A stretch of 42,117 bases of DNA from positions 1 to 42,117 of the forward strand of contig CAJQRP010000004.1 in NCBI GenBank assembly GCA_905612365.1, given 5' to 3'. The notes under the pieces are model-generated. The model had not been told where the DNA came from. It saw nothing but the letters and a program-made list of their open reading frames with translations, and did no database searches. The DNA comes from an uncultured Candidatus Pelagibacter sp. (GTDB lineage: Bacteria > Pseudomonadota > Alphaproteobacteria > Pelagibacterales > Pelagibacteraceae). A program made the position numbers and the translations under genes. Each line of letters opens with the position of its first letter. Position 1 is the first letter of the stretch. This document shows, in pieces, positions 5,067 to 14,364 of the stretch.

Positions 5067-6467
5067 ATGTCAGATAAATTTCAAGCAGTTGTAATAGGTG
5101 GTGGTCCGGGAGGTTATGTGTGTGCAATAAGGTTAGCGCAATTGGGACTTAAAACTGCATGTATAGAATCAAGAGGCTCATTAGGTGGAACTTGTTTAAA
5201 TGTTGGGTGTATACCTTCTAAAAATTTATTAAATATTTCCGAAAATTATCATAAGGCGCAAAATTTCTCTAAACTTGGCATCGAAGTGGGTGAGGTAAAA
5301 CTTAATCTTCAAAAAATGATGCAAAATAAGGATAAAGCAGTAACAATATTGACTAAAGGTGTAGAGTTTTTATTTAAGAAAAATAAAGTCACTTATTTTA
5401 AGGGCACTGGAAGCTTTAAATCTGCAAATAAAATCTCAATATTAGATGATCAAAAAAAGGAAACTATAATTGAGGCAGATAAAACGGTAATTAGCACAGG
5501 ATCTGTACCAGTAGAATTACAAGAAATGGAATTTGATGAAAAAATAATTGTATCTTCAACAGGTGCATTAACTCTGCAATCGGTTCCAAAAAAAATGGTT
5601 GTAGTTGGTGGAGGCTATATAGGATTAGAGATGGGATCTGTTTGGTCTAGATTAGGCGCTGAAGTTCATGTGGTTGAATTTCTTGATCATATTACGCCAG
5701 GAATGGATAGAGAAATATCTTCAGAATTTATGAAAATTTTAAAAAAACAAGGAATTAACTTCCATATGCAAACCAAAGTAGAGGGAATTACTAAAAACAC
5801 AAATGGAGCTAGTGTTTCAACATCTGATAAAGATGGAAAAAAAATCAATTTTGACTGTGATGTTGTTCTTATATCTGTTGGCAGAAAACCTAACACAACC
5901 AACCTAAACTTAGAAGCAATTGGTGTTGAATTGGATGAAAAGAAAAGAATTATAACAAATAAAAGCTTTCAAACAAACGTAAGTAATGTTTATGCAATTG
6001 GTGATGTAATAGATGGGCCAATGTTAGCGCACAAAGCTGAAGATGAAGGTATTGCAGTTGCAGAAAATATAGCAGGACAATCAGGGCATGTAAATTATGA
6101 TATTATTCCAGGTGTTGTTTATACAACTCCAGAAGTTGCTTCAATTGGAAAAACTGAAGAGCAATTAAAAGAAGCAAATATAAAATACAAAATTGGCAAA
6201 TTTTCGTTTATGGCAAACTCAAGAGCTAAAGCAATTGATGAAGCAGAAGGTTTTGTTAAAATTTTAGCTGATGAAAAAACAGATAAAGTTTTAGGAGCAC
6301 ATATTATCGGACCTCATGCAGGTGAATTAATTGGTGAAATTGGAGTTGCAATGGAGTTTGGTGCAAGTGCTGAAGATATTGCAAGAACGTGTCATGCACA
6401 TCCAACATTCTCAGAAGCTGTAAAAGAAGCAGCTTTATCAGTAGATAAAAGAGCAATACACTCTTAG
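5067..6467 (+). CDS. lpdA: Dihydrolipoamide dehydrogenase (E3)
   Basis: GGGPGGY FAD motif, GGTCLNVGCIPSK redox disulfide, HAHPTFSE. Confidence 0.98.
   Translation: MSDKFQAVVIGGGPGGYVCAIRLAQLGLKTACIESRGSLGGTCLNVGCIPSKNLLNISENYHKAQNFSKLGIEVGEVKLNLQKMMQNKDKAVTILTKGVEFLFKKNKVTYFKGTGSFKSANKISILDDQKKETIIEADKTVISTGSVPVELQEMEFDEKIIVSSTGALTLQSVPKKMVVVGGGYIGLEMGSVWSRLGAEVHVVEFLDHITPGMDREISSEFMKILKKQGINFHMQTKVEGITKNTNGASVSTSDKDGKKINFDCDVVLISVGRKPNTTNLNLEAIGVELDEKKRIITNKSFQTNVSNVYAIGDVIDGPMLAHKAEDEGIAVAENIAGQSGHVNYDIIPGVVYTTPEVASIGKTEEQLKEANIKYKIGKFSFMANSRAKAIDEAEGFVKILADEKTDKVLGAHIIGPHAGELIGEIGVAMEFGASAEDIARTCHAHPTFSEAVKEAALSVDKRAIHS
6452..6466 (+). repeat. Left att-like direct repeat (last codons of lpdA)
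   Basis: AGCAATACACTCTTA, embedded in AAGAG-CAATACA-CTCTT (6449-6465), a 5-bp inverted repeat around a 7-bp spacer. Confidence 0.8.
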
Positions 6468-6514
6468 TCCCATATTATCCTATAAGATTTTTAAATTACC
6501 TTTTAGTACCAACA

Positions 6515-6532
6515 CTAATAATCAATTATTAG
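6515..6532. repeat. Perfect 8-bp inverted repeat with 2-nt spacer
   Basis: CTAATAAT-CA-ATTATTAG. Confidence 0.5.
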
Positions 6533-6607
6533 AAGACTATTTAAATTTTTGTAATCGTTGGTATTCCACATTTATTAAAACATTTACTTTGGATTTAATG
6601 GTGAATT

Positions 6608-6651
6608 TATGGGTGATGTCTGAAAAACTCTATGGGCGATTTATGGGCGAT
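6608..6651 (+). repeat. Three direct copies of TATGGGYGAT (candidate integrase arm-type sites)
   Basis: TATGGGTGAT 6608-6617, TATGGGCGAT 6631-6640, TATGGGCGAT 6642-6651. The repeat is observed; the function is inferred. Confidence 0.7.
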
Positions 6652-6673
6652 GACTGTATTGTTGTTTCACTAG

Positions 6674-6712
6674 TTCCATCACCTAGACACCTGACTGGAG
6701 GTTTGGTAGTCT
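6674..6712 (+). promoter_or_regulatory. Island promoter module 1 (sigma70-like, predicted leaderless transcript)
   Basis: TTCCATCACC-TAGACA(6684-6689)-N17-TAGTCT(6707-6712)-N6-ATG(6719). Confidence 0.55.
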
Positions 6713-6718
6713 TCATTA

Positions 6719-7120
6719 ATGATCTTATTATATTTCTCCTACCTAATCATAGTTTCGAATATTATAATTTTGTCTGCTGGTTATGTAGCTAACATAGCCT
6801 TCATCGGTTCATTCTTGGGTGGTTTAATGGCTATCGGAACCGATCCTATTATTCTTATACTAGGTGCTTTGTTAGGTGCTGGATTAGTAGCTAAACCATA
6901 TAAATTTTCAGTAATATATTTATGGTTAGGTGCAATGTTTTTAACAATGCTAGTTCATGTTATTTTAGGTACTACAAGAGTTACTGTAGATCTAGTTAAG
7001 TTTGATGCCTTACTAATAATTTCTGCACTCATAATTATTGCTACAAGTTTCTTTCGGCCACTGATTGCTGATATGACAGAGGATTTCGAAAAACCCATTA
7101 CAAAAAAAGCTCCAAAGTAA
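6719..7120 (+). CDS. Hypothetical multi-pass membrane protein, 133 aa
   Basis: About 4-5 hydrophobic segments, Gly-rich (GSFLGG, LGALLGAG), charged C-terminal tail; family not recognised. Confidence 0.7.
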   Translation: MILLYFSYLIIVSNIIILSAGYVANIAFIGSFLGGLMAIGTDPIILILGALLGAGLVAKPYKFSVIYLWLGAMFLTMLVHVILGTTRVTVDLVKFDALLIISALIIIATSFFRPLIADMTEDFEKPITKKAPK

Positions 7121-7272
7121 TGCCTAGAAAACCTAACTACAAAGATTTATTAAAAAAATTCAAAAAAAGAAATGTTAAAAATCCAGAAAGAATAGCAACA
7201 GCCTATATCAAAGGATTAACTGCAGGATCCAAAAAAAAGGCTGCTAAAAATTTAGCAGGAATTATAGATTAA
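7120..7272 (+). CDS. Small, highly basic hypothetical protein, 50 aa (not in ORF track)
   Basis: TAATG stop/start overlap with the upstream gene. MPRKPNYKDLLKKFKKRNVKNPERIATAYIKGLTAGSKKKAAKNLAGIID; 15 K/R versus 3 D/E. Confidence 0.65.
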   Translation: MPRKPNYKDLLKKFKKRNVKNPERIATAYIKGLTAGSKKKAAKNLAGIID

Positions 7273-7314
7273 AGAAAAAAGGACCTAGAATCAATGAATT
7301 CTAACTAGCGACTA

Positions 7315-7352
7315 TTCCACACCTAGATACCCAATTTATGATTTAGTAGAGT
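7315..7352 (+). promoter_or_regulatory. Island promoter module 2 (near-copy of module 1)
   Basis: TTCCACACC-TAGATA(7324-7329)-N17-TAGAGT(7347-7352)-N5-ATG(7358). Confidence 0.55.
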
Positions 7353-7357
7353 TTATT

Positions 7358-7534
7358 ATGGCTACATTAGATGGAATTATTGAACCAATATATTTTTTGA
7401 TTACCTCAATAATATTTATATTATTAAGTATAATCCAATATAAAAAATTTGGAAAAACTAGGGAAACAAAATATCTCGCAGGTTTGTCAATTTTTTTCTT
7501 ATGTAGTTACATTGCTATAATTTTAAAAAATTAG
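7358..7534 (+). CDS. Small two-TM membrane protein, 58 aa (not in ORF track)
   Basis: MATLDGIIEPIYFLITSIIFILLSIIQYKKFGKTRETKYLAGLSIFFLCSYIAIILKN; two hydrophobic helices around a basic loop; promoter-like module directly upstream. Confidence 0.6.
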   Translation: MATLDGIIEPIYFLITSIIFILLSIIQYKKFGKTRETKYLAGLSIFFLCSYIAIILKN

Positions 7535-7536
7535 AA

Positions 7537-7701
7537 ATGATAAAATTTATTCTGCCAGCTATAATTGTCCTCTTGATTGTAGTATTCTGGGAAAAAATTA
7601 CTGAAATAGTATTCAAAAAATTTAATATTAGGCTGAACTATATCATTGTGAGCACTGTCTTAATAACTATCGCTATAATAATTTTATTAATCAATTTATA
7701 A
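7537..7701 (+). CDS. Small two-TM membrane protein, 54 aa (not in ORF track)
   Basis: MIKFILPAIIVLLIVVFWEKITEIVFKKFNIRLNYIIVSTVLITIAIIILLINL; starts 2 nt after the previous stop. Confidence 0.6.
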   Translation: MIKFILPAIIVLLIVVFWEKITEIVFKKFNIRLNYIIVSTVLITIAIIILLINL

Positions 7702-7868
7702 ATTGACCAAGAGAAAGAATTAAAATAGATTCTAAGATGTATTGGGATCATCAATTAAATTGTGAGTTAGTTTCATAATTTAGGTTTTATTCTTGGTACA
7801 GAAAGTAAAAAGCAAACAGTGCCTTTAGAAGTTATGTTTATCAATAGAAGTATAGTGGCTAAAAAATT

Positions 7869-7883
7869 AGCAATACACTCTTA
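7869..7883 (+). repeat. Right att-like direct repeat (displaced copy of the lpdA 3' end)
   Basis: AGCAATACACTCTTA followed by A reads GCA ATA CAC TCT TAA = AIHS-stop, the LpdA C-terminus, ending about 20 nt before the priA ATG. Confidence 0.8.
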
Positions 7884-7905
7884 AATTATTTCATATTATA
7901 ATAAT

Positions 7906-9861
7906 ATGAAAGTACCGATTCTTATACCAAATATTTTTAATCATCCTTTTACCTACAATTCAGATTTAAATTTAAAGGTTGGAGACTATGTGGTGGTACC
8001 CTTTGGAAAGTCAGAAGTTACTGGAGTTGTATGGGATGATTTTGAAAAAAAAACAAACAAAAATTTTGCAATTAAAAAAGTTTTAAGAAAATTAGATGTT
8101 CCACCACTAAAGAAAAATACAATTAAATTCTTAAATTGGTTTTCTGAGTACAATATGACCCCTAAAGGTATGGCATTAAAATTGTTATTATTAAGTAGTG
8201 GTGCCATAGAAAAGTTACCAATTGAAGCTTATGAGCAATTCAAAATTGACATCAAAGAAAATGAAATAAAACTTTCTAAAGAGCAAAAAGATTCATTAAA
8301 AAAAATGAATGTATTAAATCAAAAATTTAGAGTTCATGTTTTACAAGGCACTACAGGGTCTGGTAAAACGATGGTTTATTTTGAGGCTTTAAAAGAGATA
8401 ATTAATAAGGGTTTTCAGGGGTTAATTCTACTGCCAGAAATTGGATTAACAGGACAATTTCAAAATAAATTTATAGAATTTTTTGGATTCAAGCCTGCTG
8501 TGTGGCACTCAGGTATTACAAAAAAAAATAAAGAAATTATTTGGAGTGGAATAGCAAATGATAAAATTAAAGTTGTAATTGGTGCTCGATCCTCATTGTT
8601 TTTACCTTTTAAAAAACTAGGATTAATCATTGTTGATGAAGAGCATGATCAATCTTATAAACAAGATGAGAGAGTAGCTTACAATGCGAGAGACATGGCA
8701 ATTTCTAGAGCATCCTTTGAAAATATTCCAATCAATTTAATAACAGCCGTTCCCTCTATTGAAACTTATGACAATATTAAAAAAGGCAAATATAGTGTAT
8801 CAAAACTTGATCAAAGATATTTAAATGCATCTTTACCAAAATATGAAATAATTAATCTTAATAATTCAAAGTTAGAATCTCAATCTTGGATATCAAAAGA
8901 AACAATTGAGAAAGTAAAATTTCATCTTGAAAAAAAAGATCAAGTATTATTTTTTTTAAATAGAAGAGGATTTTCACCCCATGTATTGTGTAAAAAATGT
9001 TTTACTAGTTATTCATGTCCAAATTGTTCAATAAATTTGGTTTATCACAAAAACAAACAAAATTTATTATGTCACTACTGTGGATACAAAGCTTTACTAA
9101 ATAGGGACTGCTCAAAAGAAGGAAAATGTGATTTTATTTTTAGTGGGCCTGGAGTTGAAAGGATATCTGAAGAAGTAAAAAAAATTTTCCCCACCAAGGA
9201 AACAACTATATTTTCTAGTGATACAATGAATAAAAAAAGTTCAGCAGATATTTTGGAAAAAATTATAGATAATAAAATTCAAATTTTAATTGGAACTCAA
9301 TTAATTTCTAAAGGATTCCACTTTCCAAGTTTAAATTGTATTGTTGTTGTTGATATCGACTTATCATCACAAGGTCATGACTTACGAGGTGCCGAAAAGA
9401 ATTTACAGTTATATCACCAACTTTCAGGTAGAGCAGGAAGAACAGGAAAGCCAGCAACTGTTTATTTTCAAACTTATAATTTAGATACCAAAATGATAAC
9501 AGACATTACAAATAAAGATCCTGATATTTTTTTAGATAAAGAACTTGAAATTAGAAGGGAAAATAATCTTCCACCGTTTCAGAGATTTATTGCTTTAATA
9601 ATTACTGGCAGCAATGAAAGAGAACTTGAAAAAGAGGCTTATAAGTTTAAAGTTTTTATAGAAAGTGCTGTCGAAGGGAGAGTTCTTGGCCCTGTGAATG
9701 CACCTATATTTAGATTAAAAAGAAAGTTCAGAGTAAGACTTTTGATCAGAGGTAGAAAATCTCTAAAAGTACAGAATTCACTAGCCAAAATCATTGAAAA
9801 ATTCAAATTTCCTACTGGAATGAAACTAACAGTTGATGTTGATCCAATAAACTTCAATTAA
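7906..9861 (+). CDS. priA: Primosomal protein N' (replication restart helicase)
   Basis: GTTGSGKT Walker A, DEEHD, Cys-rich CKKC/CPNC/CHYC, QLSGRAGR, C-terminal VDVDPINF. Confidence 0.96.
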   Translation: MKVPILIPNIFNHPFTYNSDLNLKVGDYVVVPFGKSEVTGVVWDDFEKKTNKNFAIKKVLRKLDVPPLKKNTIKFLNWFSEYNMTPKGMALKLLLLSSGAIEKLPIEAYEQFKIDIKENEIKLSKEQKDSLKKMNVLNQKFRVHVLQGTTGSGKTMVYFEALKEIINKGFQGLILLPEIGLTGQFQNKFIEFFGFKPAVWHSGITKKNKEIIWSGIANDKIKVVIGARSSLFLPFKKLGLIIVDEEHDQSYKQDERVAYNARDMAISRASFENIPINLITAVPSIETYDNIKKGKYSVSKLDQRYLNASLPKYEIINLNNSKLESQSWISKETIEKVKFHLEKKDQVLFFLNRRGFSPHVLCKKCFTSYSCPNCSINLVYHKNKQNLLCHYCGYKALLNRDCSKEGKCDFIFSGPGVERISEEVKKIFPTKETTIFSSDTMNKKSSADILEKIIDNKIQILIGTQLISKGFHFPSLNCIVVVDIDLSSQGHDLRGAEKNLQLYHQLSGRAGRTGKPATVYFQTYNLDTKMITDITNKDPDIFLDKELEIRRENNLPPFQRFIALIITGSNERELEKEAYKFKVFIESAVEGRVLGPVNAPIFRLKRKFRVRLLIRGRKSLKVQNSLAKIIEKFKFPTGMKLTVDVDPINFN

Positions 9862-12068: not shown

Positions 12069-14364
<2,296 letters not shown>

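Follow-up and report, generated by a model that had tools for sequence, protein, structure and literature searches.

The insert at the 3' end of lpdA

The window, the whole 42,117-nt stretch of Candidatus Pelagibacter sp. DNA that was analyzed, contains no tRNA genes. Between lpdA and priA lie two promoter-like sites and four small genes enclosed by arm sequences (Table 1). The sequence AGCAATACACTCTTA occurs at the lpdA 3' end and again at an offset of 1417 nt. These are its two copies in the whole 618-kb assembly G000, with no exact extension on either side. The lpdA reading frames at the copies are RAIHS-stop and LAIHS-stop, and the gene end is regenerated on integration. A sequence-only reading had described both copies as AIHS-stop, and its coordinates and frames hold. 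Removal of the interval leaves 21 nt between lpdA and the priA ATG, as that reading had argued and as in relatives with an empty site (mostly 19–22 nt, 33 nt in one). The inverted repeat that it had proposed, AAGAG/CTCTT around CAATACA, is found at the left copy and is perfect in attB/attL. In attP it is partly retained: a set of 17 distinct attP cores varies in the left arm and in the first two spacer bases but not in ATACA or most of CTCTTAA. The 15-mer had also been taken as the element's end. The core is indeed duplicated, but the core common to relatives is about 12–13 nt, (CA)ATACACTCTTA, and the attachment ends are arms of ~180 and ~200 nt beyond the 15-mer. The looser flanking similarity noted earlier was not upheld as shared ancestry; it is out of register and of different origins. 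The DNA left of the right core is the P arm of the element, and CATATTAT after the left core is element DNA missing from integrase-bearing relatives. The analysis confirms that a site-specific element occupies the last lpdA codons and that the 15-mers are its attL and attR cores.

Table 1. Features of the lpdA–priA region (positions in the window)
Feature	Positions	Strand	Remarks
lpdA (dihydrolipoamide dehydrogenase, 466 aa), target gene	5067..6467	+	ORF; Pfam Pyr_redox_2 and Pyr_redox_dim; attB/attL core within the last codons
attL core, 15-mer	6452..6466	+	family-wide core about 6454-6466
P' arm, core-proximal segment, cargo type, 128 nt	6468..6595	+	integrase-bearing elements: 117-118 nt
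Four direct arm-type-like repeats TAATGGTGA, TTATGGGTG, CTATGGGCG, TTATGGGCG	6596..6649	+	spacing 11/23/11; integrase binding predicted
Promoter-like TAGACA-N17-TAGTCT	6684..6712	+	6 nt 5' of ATG at 6719; leaderless transcript predicted
Cargo gene 1, 133 aa, hydrophobic	6719..7120	+	ORF; unmatched in Pfam and PHROGs
Cargo gene 2, 50 aa, basic	7120..7272	+	ORF; overlaps gene 1 via TAATG
Second promoter-like site TAGATA-N17-TAGAGT	7324..7352	+	5 nt 5' of ATG at 7358
Cargo gene 3, 58 aa, hydrophobic	7358..7534	+	ORF; Pfam matches sub-threshold only
Cargo gene 4, 54 aa, hydrophobic	7537..7701	+	ORF
P arm of attR	7702..7868	+	inverted arm-like TTGACCAAGA 7703-7712; direct TCTTGGTAC 7791-7799
attR core	7869..7883	+	
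priA (primosomal protein N', 651 aa), downstream flank	7906..9861	+	ORF

The window element has no integrase or transfer genes and keeps attL and attR. Its core-proximal segment (6468–6595) has an alignment score of 0.97 to another cargo element and 0.45 to the best integrase-bearing element. The attL-side arm repeats are 91.9% identical over 86 nt to those of the integrase-bearing L254, and the attR side (7702–7883, 182 nt) is 84.6% identical to the viral contig L228. The two sides derive from different helper types, with mismatched arms: an ATGG type at attL (like L254) and a TCTTGG type at attR (like L228). The P-arm sites TTGACCAAGA and TCTTGGTAC lie at the same core distances as in the attP of the integrase-bearing helper element described below; the window has one direct P-arm site, and most elements have two. 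The window copy may combine two arm types as a mosaic and be less mobile than its relatives. The helper's own genes are replaced here by a promoter-like site and the four small genes. Many cargo elements have the TAGACA-N17-TAGTCT motif, with equal spacing, ahead of their first gene. A generic sigma-70 scan gave 10 sites compared to 9.4 expected, and the 6684–6712 motif was not among them. Copies of cargo gene 1 at 92–96% identity sit at other loci of relatives, and the 7324–7352 site accompanies cargo gene 3 at other loci. Pfam and PHROGs gave no family for any of the four cargo proteins.

An integrase-bearing helper shares the core

The helper is a ~9-kb element (~8.8–9.0 kb between cores) that encodes a divergent tyrosine integrase of 506–515 aa together with PolA and TerS (PF00476 and PF03592 matches above cut-off). 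No capsid, large terminase, or other structural gene was recognized in it, and several small ORFs are without assignment. In 2 of 401 genomes, G062 and G158, it occupies the lpdA–priA interval and both cores are present. The sequence-only reading had proposed a search of viral contigs for attP beside a tyrosine integrase, and L228 (9177 bp, 99-nt terminal overlap) has it: the order is P arm, core, four arms, and integrase, without lpdA. The core lies ~280–315 nt upstream of the integrase in 37 of the 46 metagenome integrase loci examined, 10 behind lpdA and 27 behind a P arm, and five of the 46 are terminally redundant. Concatemeric DNA in phage particles and dependence on a helper phage are criteria for such satellites; L228 comes from a viral collection and is terminally redundant, and L243 has two helper copies head-to-tail, possibly an assembly effect. 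A full pelagiphage was rejected as the helper in favor of this satellite-like element.

The catalytic motif of tyrosine recombinases is R-K-H-R-H-Y. All 28 helper integrase sequences compared have R306, K349, R440, H462, and Y472, and K437 stands where the first His is expected. The integrase matches phrog_1 (E 4.5e-14), and its PF00589 match is below cut-off or absent. The divergent helper integrase escapes Pfam cut-offs, and PF00589 searches recovered one prophage integrase and a chromosomal recombinase but nothing of the helper family. A structural model (pTM 0.45) has an N-terminal sheet and helix at residues 49–119, and a fold search placed lambda integrase at the top (E 3e-6, TM 0.30–0.38); the integrase profile found no sequence match among solved structures. 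Neither the integrase nor the first 311 aa of the polymerase had a tblastn match among 50,697 phage records, and the best blastn matches of the attL region to these records had E about 0.3–0.9. The integrase profile, run without a positive control, had no match in G000 (55% complete), G066, G367, G120, G193, or G215; a separate single-protein integrase search did match G062 and G158.

Lambda Int sites have a short core, a regenerated gene, and asymmetric P/P' arms with direct and inverted repeats, and the integrase has an extra N-terminal domain. The lpdA system appears to share this anatomy, including, by its model, the extra N-terminal domain. A duplicated core, a regenerated gene, an empty attB, attP beside the integrase, and the catalytic residues are all present. 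The differences are K437 in place of the first catalytic His and the weak symmetry of the attP core.

Distribution and origin of the integrase-less elements

The lpdA site is empty in 75 of the 86 tallied relatives, the closest ones included, and empty-site joints were seen in one of four metagenome runs. In many filled genomes the variable content breaks at the core. The proposal that lpdA is a protein-coding attB is borne out by this empty majority and by the integrase-bearing element there in G062 and G158, and the comparison of empty and filled sites came out as the sequence-only reading had expected. Nine filled intervals have no duplicated core; therefore, other routes also fill the lpdA–priA interval. 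A four-arm pattern found 22 distinct loci in Pelagibacteraceae, all directly behind lpdA and 21 without an integrase within 10 kb. The integrase-less forms outnumber the helper, and their cargo consists of pilins, complete type IV pilus clusters, or R-M genes. Because the pattern that retrieved many of the cargo loci requires four arms, arm retention is in part built into this sample. The core-to-arm distance is 117–118 nt in 29/29 integrase-bearing and 127–130 nt in 23/25 integrase-less sequences, so that the arms of cargo forms are displaced away from the core by 10–13 bp, roughly one helical turn, relative to the helper's. The two integrase-less elements with the helper-type 117-nt spacing, G066 and L221, look like simple replacements. 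Integrase-less arm blocks resemble different helpers (73–98%). Integrase-less tandems with an exact P arm-core-P' junction occur at three loci (L176, G193, and G066), and these could also be explained as helpers stripped of genes after integrating. Decayed copies include G367 and the inner G066 unit, which have lost two arms, and G148, which has none. No tandem of a helper and a cargo unit was seen.

Free cargo circles were sought in viral contigs and metagenomes. Three viral-contig pattern scans (core plus cargo-type flank) yielded no free cargo-type attP; 47 viral-contig matches to a core plus cargo-type flank pattern were chance-like on inspection, and 13 matches to a two-arm pattern were unrelated. 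The four-arm spacing pattern alone retrieved attP in one of its seven viral-contig matches. The 7883-to-6467 joint is absent among the 15 joints listed from the contigs of four metagenome runs.

We consider it probable that the 1417-bp insert represents a cargo element without an integrase of its own, set between the arms of the ~9-kb satellite-like element and likely moved by the latter's integrase. The earlier proposal of a helper-dependent cargo element stands in that an integrase-bearing element shares the core, but the helper is satellite-like rather than a full pelagiphage, and helper-dependent mobility is an inference. A visiting helper's tyrosine integrase would excise and re-integrate the cargo element. 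The TGG repeats are predicted arm-type sites that the N-terminal integrase domain may read, and the cargo lineage would hold them in helical phase at +10–13 bp. Mobilization of cargo units could occur in trans or jointly with a helper in tandem, and the units could pile up at the regenerated site. Passage from cell to cell might rely on particles of some helper phage, or on vesicles.

An alternative that we regard as unlikely, though deserving of weight, is an immobile relic: a satellite descendant that no longer recombines, with filled alleles spread solely by lpdA/priA homologous recombination and arms carried along passively with a useful promoter. It accommodates the missing cargo circle in the viral-contig scans and listed metagenome joints, the mismatched window arms, the partly decayed arms of G367, G148, and the inner G066 unit, and the replacement-like 117-nt spacing of G066 and L221. 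The available part of a preprint (10.64898/2026.10.07.757358) also prefers homologous replacement at conserved positions. However, the proximal segment is distinct, common to 23 cargo sequences, and tightly spaced at 127–130 nt, the arm blocks track different helpers, the P arms lie at exact distances, and there are three integrase-less tandems. Taken together, these features make neutral decay in a streamlined genome hard to credit, an argument that would weaken if an unsampled helper lineage had longer spacing. The cargo form's own proximal arm, its spacing, and its promoter-like site suggest a dedicated cargo element rather than decay.

Action of a host recombinase at a dif-like site, by the conserved chromosomal tyrosine recombinase or an XerC/D-type activity, is very improbable. 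A chromosomal PF00589 protein of ~305–335 aa is present in 5/5 genomes searched and G000 has a PF00589 fragment at a contig end, but the chromosomal gene sits elsewhere beside unrelated genes, and a dedicated integrase family goes with the core and arms and adjoins them in 37/46 loci. A chance repeat or misassembly is rejected and has a negligible likelihood. G000 holds 51 exact direct repeats of at least 15 nt at a similar spacing (100–3000 nt apart), so the 15-mer alone is not rare and the weight of the AGCAATACACTCTTA repeat comes from its position and the comparative data; no contig of the four metagenome runs spans the whole stretch. These comparative data refute chance and misassembly: the attL junction recurs in G193 at 94% over 510 nt, the attR side recurs in G066 at 89%, and the arms match independent elements. 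The sequence-only reading had named as evidence against itself relatives with the same interval but no duplicated lpdA end, content that does not break at the repeats with no integrase-bearing element sharing the core, and a misassembly; none of these was borne out.

A broader, more tentative model is two-tier gene delivery in SAR11, which we judge possible at somewhat less than even chance. Rare ~9-kb satellites would supply the divergent integrase, and commoner, dedicated integrase-less 'expression shuttles' would hijack it and stack genes at the 3' termini of protein-coding core genes, lpdA being one of several such sites. A shuttle would consist of att arms in helical phase, a leaderless promoter, and swappable genes, and the stacked cargo would be pilins, whole type IV pilus clusters, and defence genes.

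Relation to known systems and significance

The system may be described as a VEIME satellite plus a CIME-like derivative on a protein-coding target. VEIME module 6 comprises marine phage satellites of Pelagibacter/Alphaproteobacteria hosts (Eppley et al. 2022, PMC9618062, in the part available). The likeness to the helper is one of gene content, as both have tyrosine integrase, small terminase, and DNA polymerase genes; the helper is also compact and without a recognized capsid or large terminase, the PICI-like/VEIME criterion. The available text of PMC9618062 gives no attachment site for module 6 and describes no integrase-less derivatives of it, which are present here, and a text search of its supplementary files gave no lpdA, dihydrolipo, priA, or attP. 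CIMEs are derived from ICEs or IMEs, retain attL and attR after the loss of integration and transfer genes, form tandem accretions at target gene 3' ends, and move by conjugation in tandem with ICEs/IMEs (Guedon et al. 2017, PMC5704250, in the sections available). The window element likewise lacks an integrase and keeps attL and attR, and there are tandems at L176, G193, and G066. In contrast, the parent here is a TerS/PolA satellite, no conjugation gene was recognized, and no helper-cargo tandem was seen.

Tycheposons of Prochlorococcus target tRNA/tmRNA genes, the counted elements carry an integrase, and successive integrations push older elements into the island (Hackl et al., 10.1101/2020.12.28.424599, as far as the accessible text goes). 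They too join satellite-like and cargo forms through a site-specific integrase, but the target here is the protein-coding lpdA and the cargo forms have no integrase. Temperate pelagiphages (HTVC019P- and HTVC010P-type) are full phages with a tyrosine integrase, an 11–46-bp core, and a SAR11 host, and those known by 2021 all sit at tRNA genes according to the accessible portions of 10.1101/410191 and PMC8477408. The tyrosine integrase, a core in this size range, and the SAR11 host are common to both systems, but the helper is not a full phage and the target is not a tRNA gene. The resemblance to an integron cassette array is limited to a promoter with shuffled small genes, and no integrase is adjacent.

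Streamlined SAR11 genomes are nearly without annotated integrases or transposases, and the turnover of cassettes and type IV pilus genes at recurrent positions is a question. The available part of the preprint 10.64898/2026.10.07.757358 calls the mechanism of small-cassette and type IV pilus gain and loss unresolved, with no link to tRNA hotspots. The lpdA locus offers a named target, an enzyme family, att anatomy, and natural substrates, which makes the question testable by a standard plasmid recombination assay. It extends SAR11 integration sites past tRNA genes and provides a compact integrase/attP pair for a conserved gene in a clade that is hard to handle genetically. Helper-driven cargo movement, if true, would help explain how accessory genes such as pili are gained and lost in SAR11.

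Duplication of the lpdA 3' end and occupancy of the site

The 15-mer AGCAATACACTCTTA at the end of lpdA recurs at a spacing of 1417 nt, and no third copy was found in the assembly (618 kb, 55% complete). Both copies read AIHS-stop, which reproduces the duplication from which the sequence-only reading had proposed a 1.4-kb integrase-less element in the last lpdA codons. Exact direct repeats of at least 15 nt at 100-3000 nt spacing number 51 in this assembly; repeats this long are therefore not rare, and the case depends on comparative evidence.

Positions of the element and its flanking features in the window
Feature	Position	Remark
lpdA	5067-6467	Final codons hold the left 15-mer copy
Left 15-mer copy	6452-6466
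Four direct repeats	6596-6649
Right-end arm sites	7703-7712 (inverted), 7791-7799
Right 15-mer copy	7869-7883	Ends 22 nt short of priA (7906)

The lpdA-priA gap in a first set of relatives was 19-22 nt in many and 0.7-6.5 kb in others. A 401-genome search (150 matches listed, 546 more) was crossed with a core plus priA-side pattern, present in 135 of the 401, and 86 genomes entered the tally from both lists. Sorting the interval into empty and filled sites, the check proposed with the sequence-only reading, gave an empty majority: among the matches listed, the site was empty in 75 of 86 genomes, filled on a single contig in 8 (insert 1.0-43 kb) and had its ends on separate contigs in 3. Fillings whose core is not duplicated fall outside the tally; nine intervals of this kind (G002, G005, G008, G012, G013, G020, G021, G029 and G033) show that lpdA-priA variation does not all come from this system. 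Joints that connect the end of lpdA with the priA side across a skip of ~1420-1440 nt were present in one of four metagenome runs. The predicted empty site was recovered; no free cargo-type attP, the junction of the predicted 1417-bp circle, was among the joints listed in these runs.

In genome G362 (L171, L102) a cargo element occupies the lpdA core despite an older 699-nt gene insertion between lpdA and priA; the target is therefore lpdA itself. LpdA residues ~150-156 (window ~5510-5535) read VELQEME compared to VSLPGIE in a close relative (G007), and the protein is otherwise conserved.

Attachment arms and the integrase-bearing helper

Fillings with a duplicated core carry four direct repeats with 11/23/11 spacing ~130 nt inside the left end (P' arm). 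Within their right end (P arm) lie two or three related sites. The lambda att architecture is the comparison frame for this core and its arms. The four-repeat spacing pattern occurs at 70 loci across 185,579 genomes, and 22 distinct Pelagibacteraceae loci plus 5 others were examined. All 22 lie directly behind lpdA, and 21 have no integrase within 10 kb. The 5 other matches lacked lpdA and were mostly simple repeats.

The same pattern gave 7 matches in the viral collection, one of them a 9177-bp contig (L152/L228) whose ends overlap by 99 nt. It runs from the window's right-end sequence into a core without lpdA, four arms and a 506-aa ORF, and so holds the attP predicted to lie beside a tyrosine integrase in viral contigs. 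The ORF is a divergent tyrosine integrase. It matched phrog_1 (E 4.5e-14) and no Pfam family; two relatives gave PF00589 matches below the cut-off. The catalytic residues R306, K349, R440, H462 and Y472 are invariant among 28 aligned sequences. The structural model is moderate (pLDDT 75, pTM 0.45), and its best fold match is lambda integrase (E 3e-6). The proposed inverted repeat AAGAG-CAATACA-CTCTT holds without mismatch at attB and attL. Across 17 distinct attP cores, ATACA is invariant, as is most of CTCTTAA, but the repeat's left arm varies, along with the first two bases of the spacer.

Relatives of this integrase number 51 in the protein collection, and just 4 of 401 genomes hold a homolog, two of them with 29% identity and located at tRNA-Thr. 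In the other two, G062 and G158, the integrase lies 270-300 nt behind lpdA and heads an 8.8-9.0-kb element; this codes for a small terminase (TerS) and a family-A DNA polymerase, and its far end is a second core ahead of priA. These elements between two cores support the earlier proposal of lpdA as a protein-coding attB. A metagenome scan located 65 integrase loci, of which 46 were examined. A core lies ~280-315 nt upstream of the integrase in 37 (10 behind lpdA, 27 behind a P arm), most of the 9 others stop too near the integrase gene, and 5 of the 46 are terminally redundant at 8.8-9.7 kb. Three integrated helpers (L254:8300-8662, L246:8700-11362, L257:16900-19518) pass from TerS directly into host-like genes with attR absent from view, i.e., right-end decay or cargo gain.

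The window's element resembles integrase-bearing elements at both ends. Positions 7702-7883, starting just past the last cargo stop codon, match the L228 P arm at 84.6% over 182 nt, and 6588-6671 match the arm block of integrase-bearing L254 at 91.9% over 86 nt.

Cargo and proposed mobility of the integrase-less elements

Between the window's arms are a promoter-like TAGACA-N17-TAGTCT, six bases 5' of the first ATG, and four small genes without known family. No homolog of the helper integrase was found in the 55% complete assembly. The promoter-like motif is kept ahead of the first gene in many cargo elements. The window's cargo genes recur at other loci of close relatives at 92-97% identity in different orders; in metagenome contigs, gene 4 is joined to gene 1 or follows the promoter directly. 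The four genes (window 6719-7701; L118-L130) behave as shuffled cassettes whose order and locus vary among close relatives, and cargo genes are often fused to the preceding stop codon via a TAATG overlap. In two runs, 21-31 contigs per run diverge just past the promoter at 6709.

The cargo extends from lone pilins up to an entire type IV pilus cluster (PilD, PilT-like, secretin, PilB and PilC families); a large helicase and a type III R-M pair are further examples. Complete pilus clusters lie inside lpdA att arms in G193 (L098-L100), G367 (L110), G066 (L109, L242) and G165 (L101), accompanied by autotransporter-like genes and by as many as a dozen or so pilins. Pilin units at L176:11113-11190 and 12136-12210 each end in a truncated pilin 5' stub abutting the P arm, and similar stubs occur in L105, L106 and G066. 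Such stubs may offer a handle by which new pilin genes are captured through homology.

Arm spacing was compared in 54 distinct core-plus-four-arm sequences. The core lies 117-118 nt from the first arm in all 29 with an integrase and 127-130 nt in 23 of the 25 without (window, 128), a shift of about one helical turn; the other two have helper-type spacing. The 23 have a different proximal segment, and the helpers that their arm blocks match, at 73-98%, vary. P-arm site distances are constant where present (78-80, 89-91 and 166-167 nt). Two integrase-less units stand in tandem with an exact P arm-core-P' junction at three loci (L176, G193, G066), and no integrase of the helper family was found in G066 or G367 (single-contig, 98-99% complete).

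We consider it probable that a visiting integrase mobilises the cargo elements. That they are relics that no longer move is unlikely. Several points count against mobility: free cargo-type attP was not found in viral-contig scans or among the joints listed in the four metagenome runs, no helper-cargo tandem was seen, decayed cargo copies exist, and the arm types at the window element's two ends differ. The spacing comparison, which required four arms, is also biased toward intact ones.

Other integration sites and published elements

A second hotspot lies behind a threonine-aldolase-like gene, among others (L046:1889-2060 on contig C8 of the window's assembly; L118, L119, L120, L121, L124). 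It has the promoter-like motif found at window 6674-6712, small cargo genes and tandem repeats of other types (AAACCATCAAC, AAACTGACAAC and AAACCAGGCAC), which suggests more integrase families with protein-coding targets. In sister elements (L239:5985-12200 in G200, L241:5959-12100 in G232), which have repeats of their own (CTGTCGGT) and a large ORF that is primase-like, the integrase is 29% identical and adjoins tRNA-Thr(TGT); in G200, another element in divergent orientation occupies that tRNA as well. A 417-aa prophage-like integrase lies behind a partial tRNA in L136 (G288), where AGTACCA repeats are similar to the lpdA arm sites when these are reverse-complemented. At the end of contig C31 of the window's assembly (L137:1289-1774), a tRNA gene precedes a short nuclease-like ORF running into a chromosomal tyrosine recombinase fragment, possibly a chimeric assembly end.

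Temperate pelagiphages known as of 2021 integrate at tRNA genes (10.1101/410191, PMC8477408), tycheposons target tRNAs (10.1101/2020.12.28.424599), and Biller et al. describe recombinase-associated Pelagibacter regions, often near tRNAs (PMC11876622). Eppley et al. report Pelagibacter-associated satellites with integrase, TerS and polymerase; the helper gene set fits VEIME module 6 as described there, and the text and supplementary files searched do not mention lpdA or attP (PMC9618062). For the integrase-less form, the nearest published concept is the CIME (PMC5704250). According to a 2026 preprint, 9 of 15 Arctic genomes carry a type IV pilus locus, and where small variable cassettes originate is unresolved; 'lpd', 'priA' and 'direct repeat' are absent from its main text (10.64898/2026.10.07.757358). 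The literature searched, which covered few subscription journals, yielded no report of lpdA as an attachment site in SAR11, and none of the cargo lineage that lacks an integrase, carries the promoter-like motif, has its arm spacing shifted and is commoner than its parent. The insert is a genuine site-specific element whose attB lies in a protein-coding gene, and its integrase-bearing parent, identified here, probably belongs to a known satellite class.
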